Positions 4,540 through 63,038 are shown, counted from the first letter of the stretch. The stretch: 64,000 nucleotides of DNA from Endomicrobiales bacterium (GCA_023228045.1 JALOBY010000001.1:32966-96965); one strand, 5' to 3'. The notes: generated by a model from the letters alone, not told the origin. Program-made: numbers and translations.

Positions 4540-5568
4540 CTATTGACAAAAATTAGTTTTAACAAACTTTATAGCTTCCTTTTTTATTTTAATTTTTCTT
4601 TTTAATAATTCAGAAAAGATTTGTTTGTACAAAGGCCCTGGTTTTATATTAAGTTTTTTAAGATCTTCACCGTTTAGCACAGAGATATTTTTAGTTTTTT
4701 TAAGTGTCACGAGTAAATTTGCCATTTCTTTTTTTGAAAAGCAAAGTCCTCGCAAAAACTTTTCACCTTTTTGTAAACCGATAGCATTTATAAGCAAATA
4801 AAGCCTTTCATTTGTATCTTTACCGCGATTTAGAAAATTAAAGTTTTTTATAACTGCAACATCAGCAGAAAATTTTGAAATTGCGCCAATGTGTGAAAGT
4901 AAACTAAACGCATACCCCGAATTTTTTTCTTCAAGTAATGCAAGCAATTCGTTTTTTATTCTTTGCGGTGATATGTTTTTAATAAATATACTGTGTTTTT
5001 TTGCAAGGCTTAGGGTACTTTTCTCAACAAAGAAACCGCGCGAGGCAAACCGCGCCAAGCGAAATATTCTTGTAGGATCATCTCGAAAACTTAAAGCGTG
5101 CAAAACCTGCAGTATTTTTTTTCTTACCGCAAGTGCGCCACCAAATGGGTCTATTATTTTCCCAAAATTTATCGGGTTTAAGCTAATGGCCATTGCATTT
5201 AAAGAAAAATCCCTTCTTGAAAGGTCGGCTTCTATGCTGCAAAACTCAACATCAGGCAATGCCCCAGGTTTTGCGTAAGTTTCACTACGAGCAGTTGCAA
5301 AATCAATGTGCGAGTTATCTGGAAGTATTAGCACAAAAGTTCCAAAGCGCTTATGAGAAACAACTTTCGCGTTAAGTGTTCTTGAAAACTCATTAATAAA
5401 TTTTGCCACATTGCCTTCTATGGCAATATCTAAATCGAATAATTGCTTTCCACAAAGCAGGTCGCGCACAGGGCCACCAACCAGGTATGCGCGCACACCA
5501 TTTTTTTGAGCTATCAAACCTATGGTTTTAAGTTGACTTTTAAACTTTGGGTTTATTTTAATTTTCAT
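4540..5568 (-). CDS. tRNA nucleotidyltransferase / poly(A) polymerase family protein (CCA-adding-like head domain, no obvious HD domain)
   Basis: GGPVRDLLCGK..DLDIAIEG nucleotidyltransferase motif and RRDFSLNAMA motif. Only 342 aa. Confidence 0.75.
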   Translation of the reverse strand: MKIKINPKFKSQLKTIGLIAQKNGVRAYLVGGPVRDLLCGKQLFDLDIAIEGNVAKFINEFSRTLNAKVVSHKRFGTFVLILPDNSHIDFATARSETYAKPGALPDVEFCSIEADLSRRDFSLNAMAISLNPINFGKIIDPFGGALAVRKKILQVLHALSFRDDPTRIFRLARFASRGFFVEKSTLSLAKKHSIFIKNISPQRIKNELLALLEEKNSGYAFSLLSHIGAISKFSADVAVIKNFNFLNRGKDTNERLYLLINAIGLQKGEKFLRGLCFSKKEMANLLVTLKKTKNISVLNGEDLKKLNIKPGPLYKQIFSELLKRKIKIKKEAIKFVKTNFCQ

Positions 5569-5895: not shown

Positions 5896-6250
5896 CCTAA
5901 TATCGCGTCTCGCCTGTAGGCGGACTTAGTATTTAAACCATAGAATTTGCAATAGATTGCTAGATTCGACGGACGATGACGGTCTTTTCCTTCCTCAAAA
6001 AGCTCGCCCGATGTTCATACATCATTCTTGCTTTTTGAGTTGTAAAACCCACGACCTCGCCCGTCTCGTTCCTAACACCTATTGCAAGGTCTATGGTTGC
6101 TTCGTTCATACTTGGTTTGGCTAAGATGATTTCGCCAAACCGCTAACAATGGAAAACCTTAGGTTTTCCCGTTTCGTCGGGAGTTTACCCTGAGCTTGCC
6201 GAAGGGCTCAAGTACCCTTCCGTTCGCTGAACCCTTTCCTAAGTTGTAAC
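5896..6250 (-). repeat. L-family GC-rich multi-hairpin leader element, copy A (carries a nested X-family hairpin)
   Basis: Its 5' end (minus strand GTTACAACTTAGGAAAGGGTTCAGCGA), its hairpins GGGAAAACC/GGTTTTCC and GGTTTGGC/GCCAAACC, and its 3' module TAAGTCCGCC..GGCGAGACGCGATATTAGGAAAC match the copy at 50522-50687. Confidence 0.7.
5938..6096. repeat. X-family long imperfect hairpin, divergent copy nested in L copy A
   Basis: Terminal inverted repeats CCATAGAATTTGCAATAGA / (rc) CCATAGACCTTGCAATAGG. The arms are complementary along their whole length (both carry CTCAAAAAGC), with the apex at GATGT-TCAT-ACATC. The ends resemble the 38749 and 57141 copies (..TTGCAATAGG, ..GATTCGACGG vs GAATTCGTCAA). 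Confidence 0.6.
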
Positions 6251-6909
6251 CGAATATTTTTCTTTATTTTACTTTGATCAAAATTCCAATTTGTATCCAT
6301 CTCTATTTTACTAAGTGTTTTTCTGTAGTTTTCAAGGTTTGGGTTTTTATCAAGAAGTGTTTTTATACCATCTATAACAGATGTTCTTTGCAATACACTT
6401 TTAGTGTTTTTTAACGGTAACAAAGGTACAATTTTATTTTCTCTTGCATATGCCCATGAAAGCTCAATTGTACTAACACCTATTTCATCCGCATAGTAGC
6501 GCAAAATTTCTGTTTCATCTTTTATATCATCTTCCAAGCGCACTATTTCAACAAGTGAGTCAAGACCAAAAATTAAAATTGGCTCGTAGTTTATTTTGTT
6601 TTCCTCATCTATAGCACCCACAGCTTGCTCAAAAGTGCCACGCATATTCAATGCAAGCCTTTGAGCATTATCCTTAAAGCTTTCAGGGTAAACAAATGCA
6701 ACAAGCTCTCTTGCGCTTTCCTGATAAAATAAAAATTGCTCGGCATAAAAAATACTTTTACAATTAGGGCACTGTACAATGTTTATTTCGCCGCACAAAA
6801 GCGCATCTTTTAGCTCAGGATTCTCTCCAACACAAATAGAGTTTAAAAGTTCTACTTCAAACTCATGACCACAGGCACACTTAACACTTTCCAACTTTGC
6901 AAACGACAT
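6208..6909 (-). CDS. CpXC-type zinc-ribbon domain protein
   Basis: CACG..(N)..CPNC cysteine pairs in the N-terminal 50 aa. The last ~14 codons (LQLRKGFSERKGT) are encoded by the repeated L element, so the native C-terminus is uncertain. Confidence 0.5.
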   Translation of the reverse strand: MSFAKLESVKCACGHEFEVELLNSICVGENPELKDALLCGEINIVQCPNCKSIFYAEQFLFYQESARELVAFVYPESFKDNAQRLALNMRGTFEQAVGAIDEENKINYEPILIFGLDSLVEIVRLEDDIKDETEILRYYADEIGVSTIELSWAYARENKIVPLLPLKNTKSVLQRTSVIDGIKTLLDKNPNLENYRKTLSKIEMDTNWNFDQSKIKKNIRLQLRKGFSERKGT

Positions 6910-7045
6910 ATTTTCTCCATTTTGCGGCAGTACTTATTCTTATTAATTATTAAAAATAACTTTAGGTTGTTATTTAAACAAATTGCACTGTAATTTTCAA
7001 GAAAAAAAAGGCAACTTCCCATGCAACACATATAAACTATCAAAC

Positions 7046-9725: not shown

Positions 9726-11049
9726 CCCCTAATAAGTCATAATCTTTATATCCGTTAATTTTAACTTTCAAAAATTCACCAACACTCGCATGCCCTTTGA
9801 AAAAAACACAACCATCTATTTCTATTGATTGAAAAACAGTTCTACCTTTCCATCCCCTAACTTTTTTACCGTCAACATTTATAAACTCACACGATTCATG
9901 GGCAACTGCTTCAAAAACTTTGCCAATTAGCATGGCATTTTTTTTACTTATAACTTTTTTTTGCAACAGCATCAATTCATCTTTGCGAGCTTTTTTTGTT
10001 TTTGCACTAATTTTACCTGGTATTTTCTGTGCTTTTGCACCGTCAACATTTGAGTACTCAAAAACCCCAAGATGGTCAAACCACCCATCTTTAACTACTT
10101 TTCTAAGCTCTGCAAATTGCTCAGAAGTTTCCCCTGGCAGACCAACAATTAGTGTTGAGCGAATGAATATGCCAGGCACTTCGGATTTTATTTTTTTAAG
10201 AACACCAAGTGCACCTTTTGGGCGAAGCATAAGTTTTAGAATTTTATCACTTGTGTGCTGTAGCGGAATATCAATATACTTGCAAACTTTTTTGTTGGTG
10301 GCAATCTCTTTTAGCAACTCCTGAGTTACCGAGTTGGGAAATGCGTAAAGAACTCTAATCCAACGAATATCTTTAATTTTTGAAATTTCTTGTATAAGTT
10401 TACTTATAGCAAATGTGCCATAAATATCTTTACCATAAGCTGTTGTATCTTGCCCAATTAAAATTATTTCTTTTACGCCTTTTTTGGCAAGACGGGCGGC
10501 TTCTGCAACAAGCGACTCGATAGTTCTGCTTTTATACTTTCCCCTAAGCTTTGGAATTATGCAAAATGAACATTTATGGTTACACCCTTCGGAAACACGC
10601 AAATACGCACTTGGAAACGTCCACGAAATTGGCCTTTCAAGAGATGTTTCTAAAAGGCCTCCAGGTGCACCAACTAACAGTTTACTTTTTAGTGCTTTGC
10701 GCTCAGTGACCAGCTCTGTTATTTTATCCAAGTGGCCTGTACCAACAAAACCATCCACTTTTGGAAATCTGCCGAGCAGTTTTTCTTTTTCCGACTGGAC
10801 TAAGCAGCCACTAACAAATATTTTCTGGTTTTGTTTTTTTTGTTTGCAAACAGAAGCTATCCACTGAGCCGACTCTGTTTTTGCATCTTCAATAAAAGAA
10901 CAAGTGTGAATTATTACAATGTCTGCAGAGTCAATATCATCGATTGTAACATATCCAAACTCAAGCAACATTGCCACCATACTTTCGCCTTCAACAACAT
11001 TTTTTGGGCACCCAAGCGCAACAAAAGCAACTTTCTTATTATTTTGCAC
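9709..11049 (-). CDS. rimO: ribosomal protein S12 methylthiotransferase
   Basis: N-terminal LGCPKN, radical-SAM CNHKCSFC and a C-terminal TRAM-like domain. 446 aa. Confidence 0.85.
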   Translation of the reverse strand: MQNNKKVAFVALGCPKNVVEGESMVAMLLEFGYVTIDDIDSADIVIIHTCSFIEDAKTESAQWIASVCKQKKQNQKIFVSGCLVQSEKEKLLGRFPKVDGFVGTGHLDKITELVTERKALKSKLLVGAPGGLLETSLERPISWTFPSAYLRVSEGCNHKCSFCIIPKLRGKYKSRTIESLVAEAARLAKKGVKEIILIGQDTTAYGKDIYGTFAISKLIQEISKIKDIRWIRVLYAFPNSVTQELLKEIATNKKVCKYIDIPLQHTSDKILKLMLRPKGALGVLKKIKSEVPGIFIRSTLIVGLPGETSEQFAELRKVVKDGWFDHLGVFEYSNVDGAKAQKIPGKISAKTKKARKDELMLLQKKVISKKNAMLIGKVFEAVAHESCEFINVDGKKVRGWKGRTVFQSIEIDGCVFFKGHASVGEFLKVKINGYKDYDLLGVVINE

Positions 11050-11971
11050 CTGCGTTTATATCCTTAAGTGTTAATTCAAGCTCTCTAACTTTACCATCTA
11101 TTTTTTCCCCTTCGCTAACAAGCTCTATTTTGTGCCCGTTTAGGTAAACCTCAACTCCTGACTCATTTCCAAGTTTAAGATAAAATTTCTCATTTGCGTT
11201 AAAAAATCTTTGGGTGTCCTTGTTAATAGTCCCTTCAAACAATGCCTTTTTATCTGATATTACCCTTACCCAAGTGTTATCTAACCCTACAACTTTTAAT
11301 TGCATAGCTTTTGCAATGCCAAAACCTTGATTGAGCGAATAATTCTTTTGATTGTGCCGTTTTAAAAGTGCATTTTGCAAGTTTACTTTGATACCTTGCA
11401 CTGGGTCCAAAGGTGCTTTCTTTGTTATATTTTCCTCATTTTCTTTCGTATCAAATACTGAAATATTTTTAACTGTGTCACAAGAAGGAACACCCTCAGA
11501 AACTTGCGTTAAAGTTGATGTTGAAGTTTTAACTGATGTAAATGCATCATGGCTTAAAATTAATGGTTTCATCTTACCAAAAATAAAAAATGCAACTGGT
11601 ACACTAAGAACAAGTAATGCTGTAAGTGCAAAAATTACAATTAGTGTCATTGAACTTGATGGTTTTTTATTGTTTTGTTTTTTTTCTGAAACTATTTGCT
11701 GTTTCTTTGCTATGTTTAACTGACTTTTTTGTGCCACACTCTCTAAATTTTGAGTATATGAGTTTATTATTTCATTTGGATCTATTCCAAGAAAAAGCGC
11801 ATACCTTCTTAAAGAACCAATAAAATACACCGTAGCATGAAATTTTTCTGATTCCATGTTTTCTAATGCGTCTAATTGATAGGGCGTAATTTTAAGACGG
11901 CTATGAACCAACTCCAAGGAAAAACCCTTGGTTTCTCTTGCATTTTTAAGTTTTTTACCAAAATCTTTCAT
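11039..11971 (-). CDS. RodZ-like cytoskeleton protein (HTH + TM + C-terminal DUF4115-like domain)
   Basis: N-terminal XRE-type HTH (FGKKLKNARETKGFSLELV), a central TM segment and a C-terminal beta-rich domain (WVRVISDKK..VEVYLNGHKI). Confidence 0.6.
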   Translation of the reverse strand: MKDFGKKLKNARETKGFSLELVHSRLKITPYQLDALENMESEKFHATVYFIGSLRRYALFLGIDPNEIINSYTQNLESVAQKSQLNIAKKQQIVSEKKQNNKKPSSSMTLIVIFALTALLVLSVPVAFFIFGKMKPLILSHDAFTSVKTSTSTLTQVSEGVPSCDTVKNISVFDTKENEENITKKAPLDPVQGIKVNLQNALLKRHNQKNYSLNQGFGIAKAMQLKVVGLDNTWVRVISDKKALFEGTINKDTQRFFNANEKFYLKLGNESGVEVYLNGHKIELVSEGEKIDGKVRELELTLKDINAGAK

Positions 11972-12142
11972 GCTTCCCCCTATGTCGCATCCCCACCTTT
12001 GGCGGGACTTACTTCGTTGTTCTGGCTCGGATGGGAGTCCTCTCGCCAGAATGCTCCCCGAGGGAAACCTTGTTTCCCTTCGGCGTTCGGCTCATCCCGC
12101 CAACGGCGGGATTTGCCTCACTGAACCCTTCCCCAGTTGTAA
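11972..12142 (-). repeat. L-family multi-hairpin leader element, copy C (divergent)
   Basis: Minus strand TTACAACTGGGGAAGGGTTCAGTGAGG ... hairpins CCCGCC/GGCGGG, GGGAAAC/GTTTCCC, GGGAG/CTCCC ... TAAGTCCCGCCAAAGGTGGGGATGCGACATAGGGGGAAGC-ATG (rodZ-like start). Confidence 0.6.
11979..12030 (-). repeat. 52-nt direct repeat, gene-proximal copy (3' module of L copy C)
   Basis: cctatgtcgcatccccacctttggcgggacttacttcgttgttctggctcgg matches 12149-12200 with 3 substitutions. Confidence 0.85.
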
Positions 12143-12148
12143 AAAACA

Positions 12149-12200
12149 TCTATGTCGCATCCCCGCCTCTGGCGGGACTTACTTCGTTGTTCTGGCTCGG
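12149..12200 (-). repeat. 52-nt direct repeat, distal copy
   Basis: tctatgtcgcatccccgcctctggcgggacttacttcgttgttctggctcgg. Same register, 170 nt from the proximal copy. Confidence 0.85.
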
Positions 12201-12261
12201 TACCAACGGTTGACCACTTCATCAACCACTTCGAGTGCCCAGGGCACTCTCAAAAGAACAT

Positions 12262-12993
12262 TTACTCTGATAGGTCAATAACATCAACATCTTTAGCAGG
12301 CTTAAAAACAAAACTACTCTTCGGAATACCTGCGTTTATTTTATAATTTGAAAATTGCGTGTTTTGAGCAAACGAACTGTTCCTTACTTTAATCAAAACA
12401 GGCAAATAGCTTTTTGCATCAATTAATACATCTATAAAATAGCCATTATTTTTCTTTGATGCAAATGTTACAAGGCAAGCGTTTTCGCCAATTAAACTTT
12501 TAGCGCTAAATAAAAATTCTCTATCAAGCACATTCCAAAACTTATCCAGTGAAAATAAATCTAAAGGCAGTGGCGAATTTTTGTTCCAATTTGAAAGTTT
12601 ATCTGTAATTGCCTGTTTTTGCGATGGTGTATAAACAAACAAAGTTTTTCCATTACAATAAAAACTCTGCTCTAAATCGCCTTTTTTTTGTTTTATCACA
12701 AATTTTTCAGGCGCCAAGTAAAATACAGAGCCCACAATAGCATCTGAATTCGTGGCACTTTCGTTGCTACTAAATTGCTTAAATTCAAAAGAAACATCTT
12801 TTATTTTTGAAAGCAATACTCTTGAACTTGTAATGATTTCAGCTTCTTTAGATTGTGTAAAAAGTTTATTCTTGGCGGCTCGTGCATTATTTTCTGCGGT
12901 TAAGGTTGAATAGTTTATAAATAAAGTTACCGATACCAATAAAACAAAAAATAAGTTTTTACTCTTCATTTGGGTTGTCGCCAATGTTACCAA
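12262..12993 (-). CDS. LolA-like outer-membrane lipoprotein carrier family protein
   Basis: Signal peptide (a likely start is the MKSKNLFF Met at 12969). LolA-like beta pattern FYLAPEKFVIKQ..TLFVYTPSQKQ. Confidence 0.5.
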   Translation of the reverse strand: MVTLATTQMKSKNLFFVLLVSVTLFINYSTLTAENNARAAKNKLFTQSKEAEIITSSRVLLSKIKDVSFEFKQFSSNESATNSDAIVGSVFYLAPEKFVIKQKKGDLEQSFYCNGKTLFVYTPSQKQAITDKLSNWNKNSPLPLDLFSLDKFWNVLDREFLFSAKSLIGENACLVTFASKKNNGYFIDVLIDAKSYLPVLIKVRNSSFAQNTQFSNYKINAGIPKSSFVFKPAKDVDVIDLSE

Positions 12994-29497: not shown

Positions 29498-30691
29498 TTA
29501 CTTCCAACTTATTCCATTTTCTTTTAGGTATTGCTGCGCTTTTTCGTGTCCAAGGTTAGCAGCTTGCTTATAGCAATCAATTGCTTTGACCTGATCTCCT
29601 TTTTCGCCATAAGCAACACCCATATTTGCGTAGGCGTCAGAGTATTTTGGACTGATGTTTATGGCTTTTTCATACTGTTCAATTGCTTTACCATACTCTT
29701 TTTTATTTATATAAGCCGTACCCATATTATTGTAAACTTCAGAAAAATTTGGATTTATTTTTATTGCTTCTATATAGAGTTTAATTGCTTTATTGTAATC
29801 ACCTTTGTAATGATATGCAAGACCCATTTTAAAATACGTTATAGAATCTTTTGGATTGATGTTTATTGCTTTTTTATACTGCTGAACTGCTTTGTCATTC
29901 AATTTTTGGGCAATATAAACATCGCCCATATTGCTATATGCATCAGAATATTTTGGATTTATACTTATTGCCTTATTATACTGCTCAATTGCTTTGTCGA
30001 AATTCCCTGCTTTACCATAAGCAATACCCATATTATTGTATATCTCGGAACTTTTTGGATTTACCTCTATTGCTTTCTCATACTGTTTAATTGCTTTGTC
30101 ATACAACCCTTTGGCAACATAAGCAAGACCAATGCCTGCATATGTTTGGAAATATTTTGGATTTACGCTTATTGCTTTTTCATATTGCTCAATCGCTTTA
30201 TCATAATCACCTTTTAAGTAATAAATAACTCCTAAATTATTAAAGGCCTCAACAAATTTTGAATTTATACTTATACCTTTCGCATAGCATTCAATTGCTT
30301 TGTCAAAATTCCCTGTTTTTCCATAAGAAACACCCATATTATAATAGGCCTCAGAATATTTTGAATTGATGCTTACAGCTTTTTGATACTGTTCAATAGC
30401 TTTTTCCATATTGCCCATTTTGTCATAAGCAATACCCATATTATAATAAGCCTCAGAATACTTTGGATTAATGCTTACAGCTTTTTCGTATTCTTTAATT
30501 GCCTTTTCAATACTACCTGATTCATCATAAGTAACACCCATATTGTAGTAGGCCTCATAATCTTTTGCATTAATGTTTATTGCCTTCTCAAAGCGTTGAG
30601 TTGCTTTGTCTATATTGTCCGTTTCACCATAAGCGACACTAATCATAATGCACAACAACATCATTACAATTCCAATTTTGAAAAACTTCAT
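29498..30691 (-). CDS. TPR-repeat protein (about 11 tandem 34-aa repeats) with signal peptide
   Basis: Highly regular repeat KAIEQYEKAISINPKYSEAYYNMG. Confidence 0.85.
   Translation of the reverse strand: MKFFKIGIVMMLLCIMISVAYGETDNIDKATQRFEKAININAKDYEAYYNMGVTYDESGSIEKAIKEYEKAVSINPKYSEAYYNMGIAYDKMGNMEKAIEQYQKAVSINSKYSEAYYNMGVSYGKTGNFDKAIECYAKGISINSKFVEAFNNLGVIYYLKGDYDKAIEQYEKAISVNPKYFQTYAGIGLAYVAKGLYDKAIKQYEKAIEVNPKSSEIYNNMGIAYGKAGNFDKAIEQYNKAISINPKYSDAYSNMGDVYIAQKLNDKAVQQYKKAININPKDSITYFKMGLAYHYKGDYNKAIKLYIEAIKINPNFSEVYNNMGTAYINKKEYGKAIEQYEKAINISPKYSDAYANMGVAYGEKGDQVKAIDCYKQAANLGHEKAQQYLKENGISWK
29540..30640 (-). repeat. tandem 102-bp (34-codon) repeats encoding the TPR array
   Basis: DNA-level periodicity is visible (e.g. 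recurring ttgctttgtc / attgctttac.. / cccatatt.. blocks) and matches the protein repeat. Confidence 0.7.
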
Positions 30692-30770: not shown

Positions 30771-32495
30771 TTATTGCACCTGTAGTAATTTATTTTTTAA
30801 TTTTAATATAGTGGCAATTGCGTCTTGGCTTGAAACAAGCATAACTTCACCTGAATGCCTTAGTTTTATTTCTATTTTGTCGTCTTTTAGGTTTTTTTCA
30901 CTTACTACTACTTTTATTGAAATACCAACCAAATCGGCATCTTTAAATTTAACACCGGCCCGCTCTGCTCTATCATCAATTAATACATCTACACCAAGTT
31001 TTTGCAAATTTTTATAGAGGGTTTCGGCAACTTCTGCGGTTTTTGGCTCGTCAATGTTTACAGGTATAACAACAACCTCAAATGAGGCAAGAGCAATTGG
31101 CCACTTTATGCCGTTTTCATCATGGGATTGTTCAATGGTTGCAGCAACAATTCTTGAAACTCCTATGCCGTAACAGCCCATTATACTTACTGTTTCTTTG
31201 CCTTCTTTGTTTAAATATTGCGCGTTCATAGCTTTTGAGTATTTTGTTCCAAGTTTAAATGTGTGCCCCACCTCTATGCCGCGGCAAAACTTAAGCTCTT
31301 TGCCGCAAGTTGCGCAATAATCATTATGTTTTACTTTTCTTATATCGGCAACTATGTCTGCACTAAAATCTCTGCCATAGTTTATGCCTGTAAGGTGATA
31401 ATCTGTTTTATTTGCGCCTGATACCGCGTTTAACATACCACAAATAGCATTATCTGCCACTATTTTTACTTGTTTTTTTAAACCGACCGCCGGACCCGCA
31501 AAACCCCGTGTCGCACCACTTACCTCTTCTATAACGCTATCTTTTGCAAGCACAATTTCATTTGCCCCAAGCAAGTTTTGTAATTTATTCTCATTTATTT
31601 CACAGTCGCCACGCACTAAAGCAATTACTGGTGTGCCATCTGCAACATAAATTAGCGTTTTAATAAAGTTGTCTTCTCGTTTACCTATTAGTTTGCTAAC
31701 CGAAACAACACTGCCAACACCCGGGGTATGAACTTCTTTTAGCGCATCCATTTTATCTGATAATGGTACTTTTTTTGTTATTTTAAATACTGCTTTTTCG
31801 GTGTTTGCACCATAGCCGCAATCGCAAAAAACAATTTCTTCTTCACCTGTATCGGCTATTACCATAAATTCATGCGAAAAACTGCCGCCTATCGCACCGC
31901 TTGTTGCCTCTACCGCTCTAAACGAAAACCCACAACGAGCACAAATTCTTTTGTAAGCATCAAAAACTATTTTATAATACTCGTCAGCATTTTTTTCGTC
32001 CGCATGAAATGAGTAAGCATCTTTCATATAAAACTCTCTGGCGCGCATTACGCCAAAACGAGGCCGTATTTCGTCGCGAAACTTTGTACCAAACTGGTAA
32101 AGCATCATTGGAAGTTGCCTGTATGAACGAATTTCGTTTCTTGCAAGTGCTGTTACTGCTTCTTCGTGAGTTGGGCCAAGGCAAAAGAGAGAATCTTTTC
32201 TATCGGAAATTCTAAATAGTTCTTTTCCGTAAATTGCCCAGCGGCCTGTTTCTTCCCACAGTTCTTTTGGCAACATTATTGGGAATAAAACTTCATTGCC
32301 GTCTATAGAGTTCATTTCTTCACGAATAATATTTTCAACTTTTTTTAATACTTTTAAACCAATTGGCAACCATTCATAAATGCCTGAAGCAACTTTTCGT
32401 ATCATTCCGGCCCTAAACATTAGCTTTGCGGATATTACATCGGCATCCGAGGGTGCTTCCCTTAATGTTGGAAGAAACAACTTTGAGTAACGCAT
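30771..32495 (-). CDS. proS: proline--tRNA ligase (bacterial type with INS editing domain)
   Basis: Class II motifs (FRDEIRPRFGVMRAREFYMKDAYSF; GCYGIGVSR). 574 aa. Confidence 0.95.
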   Translation of the reverse strand: MRYSKLFLPTLREAPSDADVISAKLMFRAGMIRKVASGIYEWLPIGLKVLKKVENIIREEMNSIDGNEVLFPIMLPKELWEETGRWAIYGKELFRISDRKDSLFCLGPTHEEAVTALARNEIRSYRQLPMMLYQFGTKFRDEIRPRFGVMRAREFYMKDAYSFHADEKNADEYYKIVFDAYKRICARCGFSFRAVEATSGAIGGSFSHEFMVIADTGEEEIVFCDCGYGANTEKAVFKITKKVPLSDKMDALKEVHTPGVGSVVSVSKLIGKREDNFIKTLIYVADGTPVIALVRGDCEINENKLQNLLGANEIVLAKDSVIEEVSGATRGFAGPAVGLKKQVKIVADNAICGMLNAVSGANKTDYHLTGINYGRDFSADIVADIRKVKHNDYCATCGKELKFCRGIEVGHTFKLGTKYSKAMNAQYLNKEGKETVSIMGCYGIGVSRIVAATIEQSHDENGIKWPIALASFEVVVIPVNIDEPKTAEVAETLYKNLQKLGVDVLIDDRAERAGVKFKDADLVGISIKVVVSEKNLKDDKIEIKLRHSGEVMLVSSQDAIATILKLKNKLLQVQ

Positions 32496-38731: not shown

Positions 38732-38748
38732 TTTTTCCTCCGAAACTA

Positions 38749-38917
38749 TTGAACCCAGATTTCGCAATAGGTTTAAGAACCGAGGCGAAAGAGATGGAGG
38801 CATTTTTGACGCAAAAATTGTAGCGAATGGTTATTCCATTTGCAAGGCTTTTGCGGAAAAAAATGTCCCATATCTTTTGACGAATTCCAAATCCTATTAC
38901 AAAATCAGGGTTGAACC
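38749..38917. repeat. X-family long imperfect hairpin (about 170 nt) in the pyrH-frr spacer
   Basis: Its reverse complement aligns along its full length with 57141-57310. Arms TTGAACCCAGATTTCGCAATAGG / (rc) GTTCAACCCTGATTTTGTAATAGG. Apex AATGG-TTATT-CCATT. Confidence 0.8.
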
Positions 38918-41016: not shown

Positions 41017-41162
41017 TAATATGTCCTCCTTTTGGTTTTTTCCGGCCTTAGCCGGACCCCCGCAAATTGCGAGGGACTTCCACCCCGTTGCACTTACCCC
41101 AGCCCACCAATATGATGGGACCCTGGAGAAAACCCGAGGTGTGTTTATTTTTACAAATAAAC
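41017..41162 (-). promoter_or_regulatory. structured GC-rich 5' leader of rpsB-tsf
   Basis: Minus-strand hairpins: GTTTATTT-GTAA-AAATAAAC, CCCATC-ATATT-GGTGGG (flanked by CCAG/CTGG), CCCTCGC-AATTT-GCGGGGG and TCCGGC-TAAG-GCCGGA. These are followed by AAAAAACCAAAAGGAGG-N9-ATG. Confidence 0.5.
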
Positions 41163-45821: not shown

Positions 45822-46592
45822 TTACCCAAATTTGCCAGTAATGTAATCTTCGGTGCGTTTATCGCGTGGCACGGTAAATATTTTTTCTGTTCTATCAAAT
45901 TCTATTAACTCCCCCATATAAAGAAATGCCGTTTGGTCTGAAATTCTTGCCGCCTGCTGCATATTGTGGGTTACAATTATTATTGTGTACTCTTTTTTTA
46001 ATTCAAGCATCAACTCTTCAATTTTTTTGGTTGATATTGGGTCCAAACTTGCGCACGGCTCGTCAAATAAAATTACCTCTGGCTCTACCGCAAGACACCG
46101 CGCTATACATAAGCGCTGTTGCTGACCTCCAGAAAGCCCTAATGCACTATCATGAAGCCTATCTTTTACCTCGTTCCAAAGAGCGGACTTTTGAAGTGAC
46201 TCTTCTACTTTGTGCGCTATAAAGGATTTATCTTTTATCCCTTTTATTTCAAGGCCATAACTTAAGTTTTCAAATATAGTTTTTGGAAACGGGTTTGGCT
46301 TTTGAAAAACCATACCAACCATGCGCCGCAAATCTACAACATCAAAACTTTTGTCATAAATATCTTGACCATCAAGTGTTATTTTACCTTCAAAACGCGC
46401 GATTTGGACTAAATCATTCATTCTATTAAATAGGCGAATAAGTGTAGATTTTCCACAACCAGACGGGCCAATAAAAGCGGTTATATTATTTTTTAATATG
46501 TATATATTAATGTCGTTCAACGCTTTTTTGGCACCATAGAAGAAGTTGATGTTAGTAGCATTTATTCTTATTTTATTTTCTGTAGGTTTCAT
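45822..46592 (-). CDS. pstB: phosphate ABC transporter ATP-binding protein
   Basis: [22 protein letters not shown] and the PstB-typical C-terminus [10 protein letters not shown]. Confidence 0.95.
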
Positions 46593-46607
46593 TTTTTCCT
46601 CTAATTT

Positions 46608-47474
46608 TTAATGCACATAACTCTTTTTTTGTTTTTGCCGCATCATTATTGCTGTAGCGGAAACCAATAATACTAAAACCAACAGTATTAAAGAACATCC
46701 GTAAGCTATGGCAGTTTGCTTTTCAGGGTGAGACCCTTCCGCCATTAGAGCGTATATATGATATGGCAATGCCATTACCTCAGAAAATGGTGAATCAGGA
46801 TATCTGCGTGTATAAAATGTTGCGGCAGTAAATAAAATTGGTGCTGTTTCACCGGCAGCCCTGCCGATACTTAATATTACGCCTGTTAAAATACCTGGCC
46901 ACGCGCTTGGAATTACCACTTTTTTTATTGTTTGCCAATGAGTTGCGCCAAGTGCAAGTGATGCCTCTCTTAACGATTGAGGAACTGCAGTTAACGCTTC
47001 CTGCGCAACAGAAATTATGCCAGGCAAAATTAAAATTCCAAGTGTAAGCGCGCCTGAGAGTATTGAAATACCAAAACCAAAAAACTTAACGAATATTGCT
47101 AAACCAAAAAGTCCAAAAACTACAGAAGGAACACCAGCGAGGTTATTTATGCTCATTCTAATTAAATTTACAAACGCACCTCTTGGGCTGTACTCGCACA
47201 AATAAATTGCACAGGCAAGGCCAAGTGGTAAGGCAAAAAGAATTGCGCCAAGTGTTAAATAGAAAGTTCCAACTATTGCAGGTGCAACACCACCTGCAGT
47301 CATAAACTTTTTTGGAACAGCTGTTAAAAACTCAAAGCTTATAACACCAATACCCTTTGAAACTATAAAGTAAACAATTGTTACCAAGAAAAAAAGTGTA
47401 GTAATCAGACACAAATATAGAAAAATAAAACCTATGTTTTGCTTAATGGAATTTATAGTTTTTAAAGTTATCAT
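46608..47474 (-). CDS. pstA: phosphate ABC transporter permease PstA
   Basis: EAA-loop region LREASLALGATHWQT. Position in the operon. Confidence 0.9.
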   Translation of the reverse strand: MITLKTINSIKQNIGFIFLYLCLITTLFFLVTIVYFIVSKGIGVISFEFLTAVPKKFMTAGGVAPAIVGTFYLTLGAILFALPLGLACAIYLCEYSPRGAFVNLIRMSINNLAGVPSVVFGLFGLAIFVKFFGFGISILSGALTLGILILPGIISVAQEALTAVPQSLREASLALGATHWQTIKKVVIPSAWPGILTGVILSIGRAAGETAPILFTAATFYTRRYPDSPFSEVMALPYHIYALMAEGSHPEKQTAIAYGCSLILLVLVLLVSATAIMMRQKQKKSYVH

Positions 47475-50521: not shown

Positions 50522-50687
50522 TACAACCTCCTATATCGCGTTCCGCCTTCGGCGGAACTTATCCCGCCGTTGGCGGGGTTGGTTTGGCTTTAGTTAAATC
50601 GCCAAACCGCTCTACAAGGGAAAACCTAAGGTTTTCCCATTTCATCGTCGCTCGTAAAACTCGCTGAACCCTTTCCTAAATTGTAAA
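50522..50687 (-). repeat. L-family multi-hairpin leader element, copy B (compact prototype) abutting the porin start codon
   Basis: Four perfect hairpins on the minus strand: GGGAAAACC-TTA-GGTTTTCCC, GGTTTGGC-N12-GCCAAACC, CCCGCC-AAC-GGCGGG and GTTCCGCC-GAA-GGCGGAAC. These are followed by CGCGATATAGGAGGTTGTA-ATG. Confidence 0.7.
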
Positions 50688-50774
50688 AGAACATTGAATT
50701 TATTTGATCAGCTATCAACAACAAAAAATCAAATCACCTCCTGTGTAAAATTATAATGCCATCTTTCTGGCGAA

Positions 50775-50828
50775 ATTATAACAGAACACAATTAAGAGGT
50801 GATAAATAAATTGTTAATTTTGTGTTAA
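50775..50828 (-). promoter_or_regulatory. candidate PhoB-type operator array plus -10 element upstream of the porin-pst operon
   Basis: Minus strand has four 11-bp-phased units TTAACACAAAA / TTAACAATTTA / TTTATCACCTC / TTAATTGTGTT, then CTGTTATAAT (-10 at 50780-50775). Confidence 0.35.
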
Positions 50829-57140: not shown

Positions 57141-57310
57141 CTGAACCCAAATTTTACAATAGGGTTTGGAATTCGTCAAAAGATATGGGATATTTTTTTC
57201 TGCAAAAACCTTGCAAATGGAATAACCATTCGCTGCAATTTTTGCATCAAAACTACATCCATCTCTTTCGACTCGGTTCTCAAACCTATTGCAAAGTTCG
57301 GATTGAAGGG
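57141..57310. repeat. X-family long imperfect hairpin (about 170 nt) in the murE-murF spacer
   Basis: Arms CTGAACCCAAATTTTACAATAGG / (rc) CAATCCGAACTTTGCAATAGG. Apex AATGG-AATAA-CCATT. Inverted orientation relative to the 38749 copy. Confidence 0.8.
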
Positions 57311-62638: not shown

Positions 62639-62674
62639 TAAAAGCAATTCTAAATCTCCCTTATAAAAAAATAA

Positions 62675-63038
62675 CTGGAGCAACCTATACACCGAATTCT
62701 GTTATACGCTTTTAAGCGCATATCAGGGCCATTTCTCTGTCGTATAGATTGCTCTATACGATCAAGCGGCTTACCTGCAGGCGGTTAAACCTGCAAACTT
62801 TGCCTTGCATCCCGGTAAGGATTTAGCCGTTTCATACCTTAAGTTACCTCAAGGCCTTTACCGCACTAGGCGGCAATCTTTTGCTTTTCAGCAAAAGCCG
62901 TTACTGTTCGCACCTCTATCCCGCTATATGCGGGACGATGGGAATTGCCCACTACCGTTTATCCCGCCTATGGCGGGATTGAAGTTCGGACTTTCCTCTT
63001 TGCGAATAAATCGCAAAGCGACCCTGCAGTTGCCCCAG
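62675..63038 (-). ncRNA. rnpB: RNase P RNA, bacterial type A
   Basis: Minus-strand reading: P1 5' CTGGGGCAAC pairs with 3' GTTGCTCCAG. It carries the universally conserved GAGGAAAGTCCG (P4 5' strand) and ACAGAATTCGGTGTA (cf. E. coli ACAGAACCCGGCUUA). GGTAAGCCGCTTGA matches E. coli GGUAGGCUGCUUGA. Several GC-clamped hairpins. About 364 nt. Confidence 0.85.

Follow-up and report, generated by a model that had tools for sequence, protein, structure and literature searches.

The subject of this study is a GC-rich block of hairpins, here called the L element, that lies directly upstream of a porin gene in a window of 64,000 nucleotides from an Endomicrobiales bacterium (GCA_023228045.1, JALOBY010000001.1:32966-96965; the contig is that of ENA assembly ERZ27247363). 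Our analysis indicates that L is likely a young, clade-specific, non-autonomous mobile mosaic element of an uncultured Endomicrobiales lineage, which inserts beside a Shine-Dalgarno sequence (SD) and in the orientation of the gene. Relatives with 83-91% identical DNA lack L at the sites orthologous to all three window loci that hold it, and these empty sites already contain an SD (GGAGG, GGAGG and AGGAAAC). L has been inserted beside SDs that the target genes already possessed. An earlier note on this DNA had considered either a cis-regulatory or stabilising leader of envelope genes, or a mobile module similar to repetitive extragenic palindromes (REP) and bacterial interspersed mosaic elements (BIME) that carries a ribosome-binding site (RBS). 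The leader does not agree with the absence of L from close relatives and with the unrelated genes that follow it elsewhere. The second idea holds insofar as L is a mobile, mosaic repeat built of hairpins; it is neither a plain REP nor a plain MITE (miniature inverted-repeat transposable element), because its orientation and its distance from the start codon are fixed and its hairpins covary. The element does not carry an RBS, since the empty sites already have one, and the SDs beside different copies differ.

The comparison of filled and empty sites is most direct at the porin gene. Relative L022 (porin 88% identical; DNA 83-87%) has the same intergenic region without L, which reads ...aaattaAATG/GAGGcatgtaATG, that is ...gttgttgatagttaatctaaaaaattaAATG/GAGGcatgtaATGcgtaaagta (AAATG/GAGG, the slash marking the insertion point). 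The filled site in the window reads ...gttgttgatagctgatcaaataaattcAATG (TTCT...GCGATATAG) GAGGttgtaATGcgtaaagta, with the element in brackets. L is present at this site in L006, a nearer relative (92% identical). At an 82%-identical porin locus the intergenic region measures 176 nt against 338 nt in the window, a comparison of lengths only. At the second site, the lolA-like and rodZ genes of L026 are 14 nt apart (gagTAAATTG/GAGGAAAAGCATG; TAAATTG/GAGG), and the window has 290 nt here, of which 285 nt are two L units placed exactly at the L026 junction. At the third site, the genes for a CpXC-domain protein and a 107-aa membrane protein overlap in L026 (...gttaaaaacAGGAAACATAATAGATAATG; ...gttaaaaac/AGGAAACATAATAGATAATG; element-free region 11028-11699). 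An insertion of 357 nt precedes this AGGAAAC in the window. The CpXC open reading frame (ORF; 6208-6909, minus strand) now reads through into L, so that the native last ~10 codons and the stop/start overlap are replaced. Otherwise L026 matches the window collinearly, with 89-94% identity. In L029, from a 70%-identical lineage, a different 61-nt member (TTCGCC...GCGACAT) occupies the same RodZ position, between TAAATTG and GGGAGG. A fourth locus has a module-free allele, AAAATG/GGAGA, and other alleles with modules ending in GGGCGATAT, followed by AGGAGC.

The placement of L is also constant outside the window. At about 22 loci, representing about 18 genes and tallied from printed junction sequences, the last unit ends in GCGAYAT, with 0-3 nt left to the first G of the SD and 10-18 nt to the start codon; L012 is the sole exception. 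The SDs beside the copies vary (AGGAG, GGGGG, TAGGAAAC, TAGGGTGG, TATGGAGG, TTGGAG, AAGGAG and TAAAGG), as expected because they are native sites. The echo of each copy's SD that had been seen in the purine-rich 5' motif is not real, for about 20 copies share the motif unchanged, next to SDs that vary and are the target genes' own. Every copy is co-oriented with its downstream gene. In L009 most genes of the contig run against the gene for a TolC-like protein, which is on the C-rich strand, and L still follows it; the orientation of L therefore tracks the gene and not the replication strand. The GC skew of the L-sense strand is negative in L009, L005 and L020, although these cases are few. Where the intergenic region is long, as before the porin, PPDK and L31 (rpmE) genes, L still abuts the SD, and compactness alone therefore does not explain the placement. 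The downstream genes are unrelated in function and encode porin, RodZ, ribosomal proteins L31 and S18, PPDK, a MurC-type ligase, a pyridoxal phosphate enzyme, Jag/KhpB, an RsmD-like methyltransferase, the TolC-like (OEP) protein, a CBM protein and a DUF3467 protein. All three downstream genes in the window encode membrane or envelope proteins, which had suggested a dedicated link to the envelope; this link is lost elsewhere, where ribosomal, metabolic and cell-wall genes follow L. On the left, AATG precedes TTC in about 20 of 23 units. The left flank of the empty sites is AATG at the porin gene and the fourth locus, AATTG at RodZ and AAAAAC at the 107-aa gene.

Copy 1, at the porin gene, lies on the minus strand at 50531-50691 (TTCTTTTACAA...GCGATATAG, ends uncertain by ~2 nt). 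Its left flank is AATG (50692-50695), the native target sequence that is also found in the empty site. Its 3' end abuts the native GGAGG of the porin gene (50527-50531), which is the same in the element-free L022, and the start codon follows at 50521-50519. From 50700 to 50519 the minus strand reads aattcAATG TTCTTTTACAATTTAGGAAAGGGTTCAGCGAGTTTTACGAGCGACGATGAAAT (GGGAAAACC tta GGTTTTCCC) TTGTAGAGC (GGTTTGGC gatttaactaaa GCCAAACC) AAC (CCCGCC aac GGCGGG) ATAA (GTTCCGCC gaa GGCGGAAC) GCGATAT AG GAGG TTGTA ATG, with hairpins in brackets. The conserved 5' module, TTACAAYTTAGGAAAGGGTTCAGCGA-N7-GAGCGACGAYGAAAY, occupies 50639-50686 and is near-invariant in the 12-23 copies compared. It is followed by hairpin P1 (GGGAAAACC-TTA-GGTTTTCCC, 50618-50638), hairpin P2 (GGTTTGGC-12 nt-GCCAAACC, 50581-50608), hairpin P3 (CCCGCC-AAC-GGCGGG, 50563-50577), which is an optional module missing in most canonical copies, and the 3' module (50533-50558). 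The latter consists of hairpin P4 (GTTCCGCC-GAA-GGCGGAAC, 50558-50540) and then GCGATAT. All four hairpins of the earlier note lie on the minus strand where it had placed them; a repeat finder returned the same four, three of them 100% complementary. The block is also GC-rich as described, with about 0.50 GC against about 0.30 in the remaining intergenic DNA (0.49-0.51 against 0.29-0.33) and about 0.37 in the window. None of 200 dinucleotide shuffles gave a fold as good as that predicted for a 191-nt stretch, at -67.6 kcal/mol against -47.8 +/- 4.2 for the shuffles (z = -4.7). On the antisense strand the folding is likewise strong (z = -4.2), as expected of palindromes.

Copy 1 sits in the 5' untranslated region (UTR) of a porin-pstSCAB-phoU operon, whose porin is a Porin_5 protein, and a phoB/phoR-like two-component pair lies upstream. 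Copy 1 scores 186 bits with the covariance model (CM) of the family, and it is the copy that is shared with L006. A conserved extended -10-like motif (TGTTATAAT) upstream of the operon, at window 50775-50800 on the minus strand and at 130-150 in L022, is a candidate promoter, and it would place L inside the 5' UTR. An element of another family, X, is inserted just downstream of this motif in L022 and L006.

Both ends of copy 1 recur at the two other window loci, as had been noted (~5899-6255 and ~11980-12258). The block at 11972-12262 consists of two tandem units with the same ends, not of one unit and a stray duplicate. Unit 3a (TTCTTTT...GCGACATAG, 12150-12258, minus strand) has a different interior and starts right after the lolA-like stop codon and an ATG. 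Unit 3b (TTTTTTACAACTGGGGAAGGGTTCAG...GCGACATAG, 11980-12146, minus strand; CM score 35 bits) abuts the SD and the start codon (11971) of RodZ. Copy 2 (ATTCGGTTACAAC...GCGATATT, 5899-6255, minus strand) has been inserted within the 3' end of the CpXC-domain gene, and the native AGGAAAC of the next gene, that for the 107-aa membrane protein, follows immediately on its 3' side. It is long because a separate element of ~168 nt with terminal inverted repeats (CCATAGACCTTGCAATAGG... and ...CTATTGCAAATTCTATGG, 5932-6099, minus strand) is nested within it. A related insert of ~168 nt with terminal inverted repeats (TIRs) is found at the same position of L in L020 (~2340-2510) and L021 (~6240-6410) and is not in L005. 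This suggests either that L and its insert were propagated together as a subfamily, or that the inside of L is a preferred target.

The family is a mosaic. At the 5' end of L is a conserved module of ~60 nt; GC-rich hairpins come next, in a set that varies, and a hairpin with GCGAYAT after it forms the 3' end. The canonical unit of ~165 nt has the order (AATG) TTCTYTTACAAYTTAGGAAAGGGTTCAGCGA-N7-GAGCGACGACGAAAY, P1, TTGTAGAGC, P2, AAGTATGAACGAAGTGAATAC, TAA-P4, GCGATAT, and the mean column identity of 12 canonical copies from different loci is 87%. The 5' motif given in the earlier note does recur; the conserved unit begins ~5 nt further 5', at (AATG)TTCTYTTACAA. Its literal 3' consensus was matched within 3 mismatches by copy 1 only, because of indels elsewhere, and the 3' modules of the window copies are clearly homologous by eye despite these indels. 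The observation that hairpins keep their position and change their sequence holds: P2 variants are exchanged, either GGTTTGGC/GCCAAACC or TTCTGGC/GCCAGAA. This last pair is the positional alternative, and not GGGAG/CTCCC as had been proposed, which is possibly a pseudoknot partner. The N7 patch can be replaced by a structured insert of ~45 nt, and additional hairpins (TCCCGCC...GGCGGGA) or a "mini" module of ~50 nt with two hairpins are optional. In two copies, a small hairpin module is inserted into the SD-like sequence of the 5' module, between TTAG and GGAAAGGG. Tandem units occur in L012 (two identical, with a period of 171 nt), L014, L021 and window 11980-12258, and their joint reads GCGATAT-AAATG-TTCT. 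The 3' module is the most widespread piece of the family and is also found alone directly before the SDs of genes. Inverted-repeat searches of L gave internal hairpins only; no TIRs were found, the ends TTCTTTTACAA and GCGATAT being unrelated. No target-site duplication (TSD) was seen, as the three filled/empty pairs allow at most 1-2 nt of ambiguity. A scan with consensus motifs, limited to a sigma-70-type test, found no promoter- or terminator-like site inside L. A small ORF of 45 codons (ATG...TAA) in some copies was considered and rejected, as a TAG in the loop of P1 (CTTAG or CATAG) breaks it in about half of the copies, and 1-nt indels break it as well.

The hairpins are kept by compensating changes. 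A MAFFT alignment made without fitting to a model has 96.5% of its cells paired, compared with 38-49% when the partners are slid by 1-3 columns. Both sides are changed in four pairs of this alignment, and where one side alone has changed, the result on the sense strand is nearly always G.U. A 23-copy CM alignment, which leans towards the model, gave 94.4% paired cells and 14 compensated pairs (0 of 500 shuffles as good). P1 has 100% of its cells paired in A1, with one compensatory change from A-U to G-C and with G.U variants. All forms of the P4 stem pair (GTTCCGCC/GGCGGAAC, GTCCCGCC/GGCGGGAC, GTC-CACC/GGTG-A-GAC and GTC-CGCC/GGCG-A-GAC). The 5' module contains a small hairpin with tandem G.A pairs, GCGA-NN-loop-NN-GAGC, in which the two upper pairs co-vary (AC/GU, GU/AC and GC/GC). 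A count of strand-specific mismatches in the CM alignment gave 10 G.U against 10 A.C, but misaligned columns made it unreliable; it is the sense strand that the unfitted alignment and a reading by hand favour. A long-range helix between the 5' end (GUUCU..ACAA) and UUGUAGAGC after P1 shows one-sided compatible changes only and is broken in divergent copies. A second candidate long-range pairing, CUUAG/CUAAG, has no informative variation. The pattern of changes in the hairpins points to selection on a single strand, which may be the mRNA or a single-stranded DNA intermediate.

L has a narrow distribution. A strict pattern of the 5' module matched 19 JGI metagenome stretches, all but one of them from four related samples. 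Eighteen of these are real; L013 was rejected as a chance match inside coding sequence. About 20 further copies lie on related metagenome contigs. A CM built from 12 copies found only these copies in 264 kb, and none was opposite in strand to the genes. The strict pattern had 0 matches in 185,579 representative genomes (GTDB) and none in viral contigs, an FtsK-based scan of the GTDB representative genomes gave no match, and blastn searches of plasmids and of phages gave no match to L. The PPDK of an L-bearing JGI contig is also encoded in the ENA sample of the window, ERZ27247363, and is deposited as MCK9582402.1 from a metagenome-assembled genome (MAG) named "Endomicrobiales bacterium". Endomicrobiales/Elusimicrobiota are also the source of the closest named homologues of the porin (~40% identity). 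More distant Endomicrobiales (PPDK 76-77% identical; porin 42%) have neither L nor the modules made of a hairpin and GCGAYAT. As the earlier note expected, L matched no RNA family in Rfam 15 at gathering thresholds; the sole match in the window is RNase P. Permissive E-value scans of four L regions gave chance-level matches only. A fragment of a group II intron (group-II-D1D4-4, 18.6 bits, E = 0.055, against a threshold of 49) was rejected, as it was not reproduced in other copies. Cores of small ribozymes (group I-like, hammerhead or similar to hepatitis delta virus) were also rejected, with no core motifs by eye and no Rfam match. In the literature we found no description of such an element in Endomicrobia, nor of repeats that target the SD.

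These data show that L integrates in the orientation of the gene; to its left is A/T-rich sequence (typically AAAT(T)G), and to its right are the first purines of an SD that was already there. A mechanism can be proposed from this. L is probably transcribed with the operon, within the 5' UTR or the intercistronic RNA, because two copies lie in tight operons and no terminator-like hairpin is present. The SD is probably not drawn into these self-contained hairpins, a property that would allow the insertion to be tolerated. The adjacency to the SD may be a target choice at the boundary between an A/T run and GGR, rather than an RBS supplied by the element; in AT-rich intergenic DNA such a boundary is essentially an SD. 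Movement would probably involve a single-stranded intermediate and an enzyme acting in trans. A host benefit, for example stabilisation or insulation of the mRNA, may exist. A HUH mechanism similar to that of IS200/IS605 would fit best, but the orientation test failed, and the left-end hairpin and the partner enzyme are not visible.

Several points weigh against a young SD-adjacent mobile element. All data are metagenome assemblies of few samples. No transposase or autonomous copy was found in ~282 kb by a crude regular-expression test for Y1 HUH...Y motifs and by Pfam listings for a few loci, which is a weak test. The AATG left flank is missing at the 107-aa gene. Three SD contexts in the window, AAAATGGAG, TAATTGGAG and AAATTGGAG, are very like the targets and are unoccupied (at 6925, 32510 and 1415, the starts of genes 6208-6909, 30771-32495 and 486-1403). 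The junctions fit no one simple rule, as AAATG stands between the units of arrays and the terminal units are mostly joined as GCGAYAT-AGGAG; models with an AAATG TSD, with core recombination at AAATG or with repeated insertion at one point each fail on some junctions. Precise loss in the relatives instead of gain here is formally possible at any single site.

The alternative that survives best, though we hold it to be doubtful, is that L is a non-autonomous derivative of an IS200/IS605-type (HUH) or REP/REP-associated tyrosine transposase (RAYT) system that inserts 3' of AATG, and that its adjacency to the SD results from selection in a compact genome. The lack of TIRs and of a clear TSD is consistent with this, as are a hairpin (P4) 7-9 nt from the 3' end, the AATG to the left of most units and in empty sites, the strict orientation and the strand-specific, G.T-tolerant hairpins. 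Moreover, two of the three empty sites have intergenic regions of at most 14 nt, in which any insertion would be near the SD. On the other hand, no subterminal hairpin is obvious at the left end, where the first robust one is more than 30-60 nt in and the long-range helix has one-sided support only. The AATG-free site at the 107-aa gene and the abutment on the SD in long intergenic regions do not agree with it, and in the few informative cases the orientation follows the gene on the minority, C-rich strand, contrary to the lagging-template rule. REPs normally lie 3' of genes and in alternating orientation.

It is rather unlikely that a mobile L has been co-opted as an RNA cassette. Its role might then be to stabilise the 5' end, to insulate translation or offer a standby site, or to provide a site for processing; it might even be a small self-cleaving RNA. 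A benefit in the mRNA would explain why L is retained exactly at SDs. The structure of the sense strand is kept over the whole element, including the small tandem G.A hairpin of the 5' module, and the terminal hairpin always lies 8-9 nt before the SD. L is tolerated inside operons. Near its 5' end L has an invariant SD-like sequence, AGGAAAGGG, with no start codon after it, and this is reminiscent of STAB-SD stabilisers. Against such a function, L matches no known ribozyme or leader family, the relatives do without it at the same genes, and its conservation could equally reflect the youth of the copies or a single-stranded DNA intermediate of transposition. A related proposal, which we consider improbable, is that L represents a type of mobile element not described before, one that would home specifically to SDs at their 5' edge, in the orientation of the gene, and would install a conserved multi-helix RNA with its own activity. 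Its mechanism would lie outside the known transposon families because no TIR, no TSD and no partner have yet been seen, and its activities may include self-processing or insulation, mRNA stabilisation through the SD-like 5' motif, or a guide-like role.

We give little credence to the idea that L spreads not by transposition but by tandem duplication together with recombination or gene conversion, acting between sequences near the SD or between resident 3' modules. Such events would account for the PPDK alleles, which differ by exactly one unit (AAATGTTCT...GCGATAT) flanked by repeated GCGATAT, for the tandem arrays with identical units (L012) and for the modules swapped between the 97%-identical alleles L003 and L010. 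However, the virgin sites (porin, RodZ and 107-aa genes) share only 4-5 nt with L, and about 18 unlinked loci are occupied. Finally, a conserved cis-regulatory leader of envelope genes, riboswitch-like or protein-binding, would agree with the fixed position, the stable covarying fold and the three window genes, but it is very improbable given that L is missing in close and more distant relatives, stands elsewhere before genes of ribosomal, metabolic and cell-wall function, has in one copy broken the end of an upstream ORF and is ~87% identical between different genes, as in a young repeat and not an old regulon.

Dispersed near-identical copies and presence/absence polymorphism in close relatives, the generic features of mobile repeats, are thus both found in L. 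It belongs among the bacterial non-autonomous mosaic repeats, and its distinguishing feature is the SD-adjacent, gene-oriented insertion. Copies in both orientations, with no fixed relation to start codons and no covariation, were not seen among those found. L departs in defining features from each of BOX, REP/BIME, IS200/IS605 derivatives and mycobacterial interspersed repetitive units (MIRUs), and it is not a riboswitch-like leader. The BOX elements of Streptococcus pneumoniae (boxA-boxB(n)-boxC) are modular intergenic repeats with conserved ends and variable internal hairpins; they are co-transcribed with their neighbours, fold into stable RNAs and encode no transposase. L has the same modular build of conserved end modules and variable internal hairpins, but the sequences are unrelated, the ends of BOX are mutually complementary, BOX is not tied to the SD edge or to gene orientation, and L is confined to an Endomicrobiales clade. 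With REP/BIME (RAYT, TnpA-REP) L shares GC-rich hairpin units in a background of different composition, mosaics, the lack of TIRs and TSDs and a presumed single-strand recognition. REPs, in contrast, are 20-40 nt long, usually lie downstream of genes, alternate in BIMEs and have a GTAG-type head, whereas L has a long non-palindromic conserved 5' module and hairpins that all point one way, upstream at the SD. The palindrome-associated transposable elements of the IS200/IS605 type are similar in having no inverted repeats, no target duplication, hairpin-rich ends and an oriented position beside a short flank (AATG in L); L differs in that it shows no clear hairpin at its left end, that a partner transposase was not seen and that its orientation tracks the gene rather than the replication strand. 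MITEs, such as the Correia elements of Neisseria and the X family of this window, are like L small, non-coding, polymorphic in presence, intergenic and co-transcribed, but they have TIRs and target duplications and occur in either orientation, while L has neither and is fixed in orientation and position. MIRUs of mycobacteria are direct tandem intergenic repeats within operons, oriented with transcription between a stop codon and the next start codon. L is also operon-internal and oriented, but MIRUs are minisatellite units of 40-100 nt with small overlapping ORFs, and L is built of hairpins and has no conserved ORF.

If the gene-oriented placement beside the SD is a true target choice, L would be rewriting 5' UTRs genome-wide at one defined position. 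For the biology of mobile elements the question is then what recognises an RBS in DNA. For RNA biology it is whether a portable structured cassette beside the SD stabilises or insulates messages, as engineered insulators do. In annotation, GC-rich structured blocks before genes in AT-rich MAGs can be young insertions and not riboswitches, and L can truncate upstream ORFs.

Other repeats and structured features were observed in the window. The X family is a classical MITE of ~160 nt with TIRs (...CTTTGYAATAGGTTTG...), with copies at 38748-38916 and 57142-57307 in the window and, in relatives, at 4946-5114 and 641-798 of L006 and 158-313 of L022. Its presence varies: relatives carry it between pstA and pstB and between phoR and the porin gene, but the window lacks it at the orthologous sites (46592-46608 and ~50765). 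The terminal 8-mer of L, GGGTTCAG, which had been described as common to L and the X hairpins, occurs just once more in the window. Directly upstream of rpsB, the gene for ribosomal protein S2, lies a structured block unrelated to L and rich in GC, up to 65% (41022-41145, minus strand). It has no match in Rfam (best 18 bits, E = 0.11) and may be an S2 autoregulatory leader. The class A RNase P RNA (62672-63037, minus strand) scores 112.9 bits, just above the gathering score of 100, and holds TCCCGCC-loop-GGCGGGA hairpins of the same type as modules P3 and P4 of L. At 29539-30660, ten tandem units of 102 nt (60-73% alike) lie inside an ORF of 397 aa (29498-30691), which would encode a protein with 34-residue repeats.

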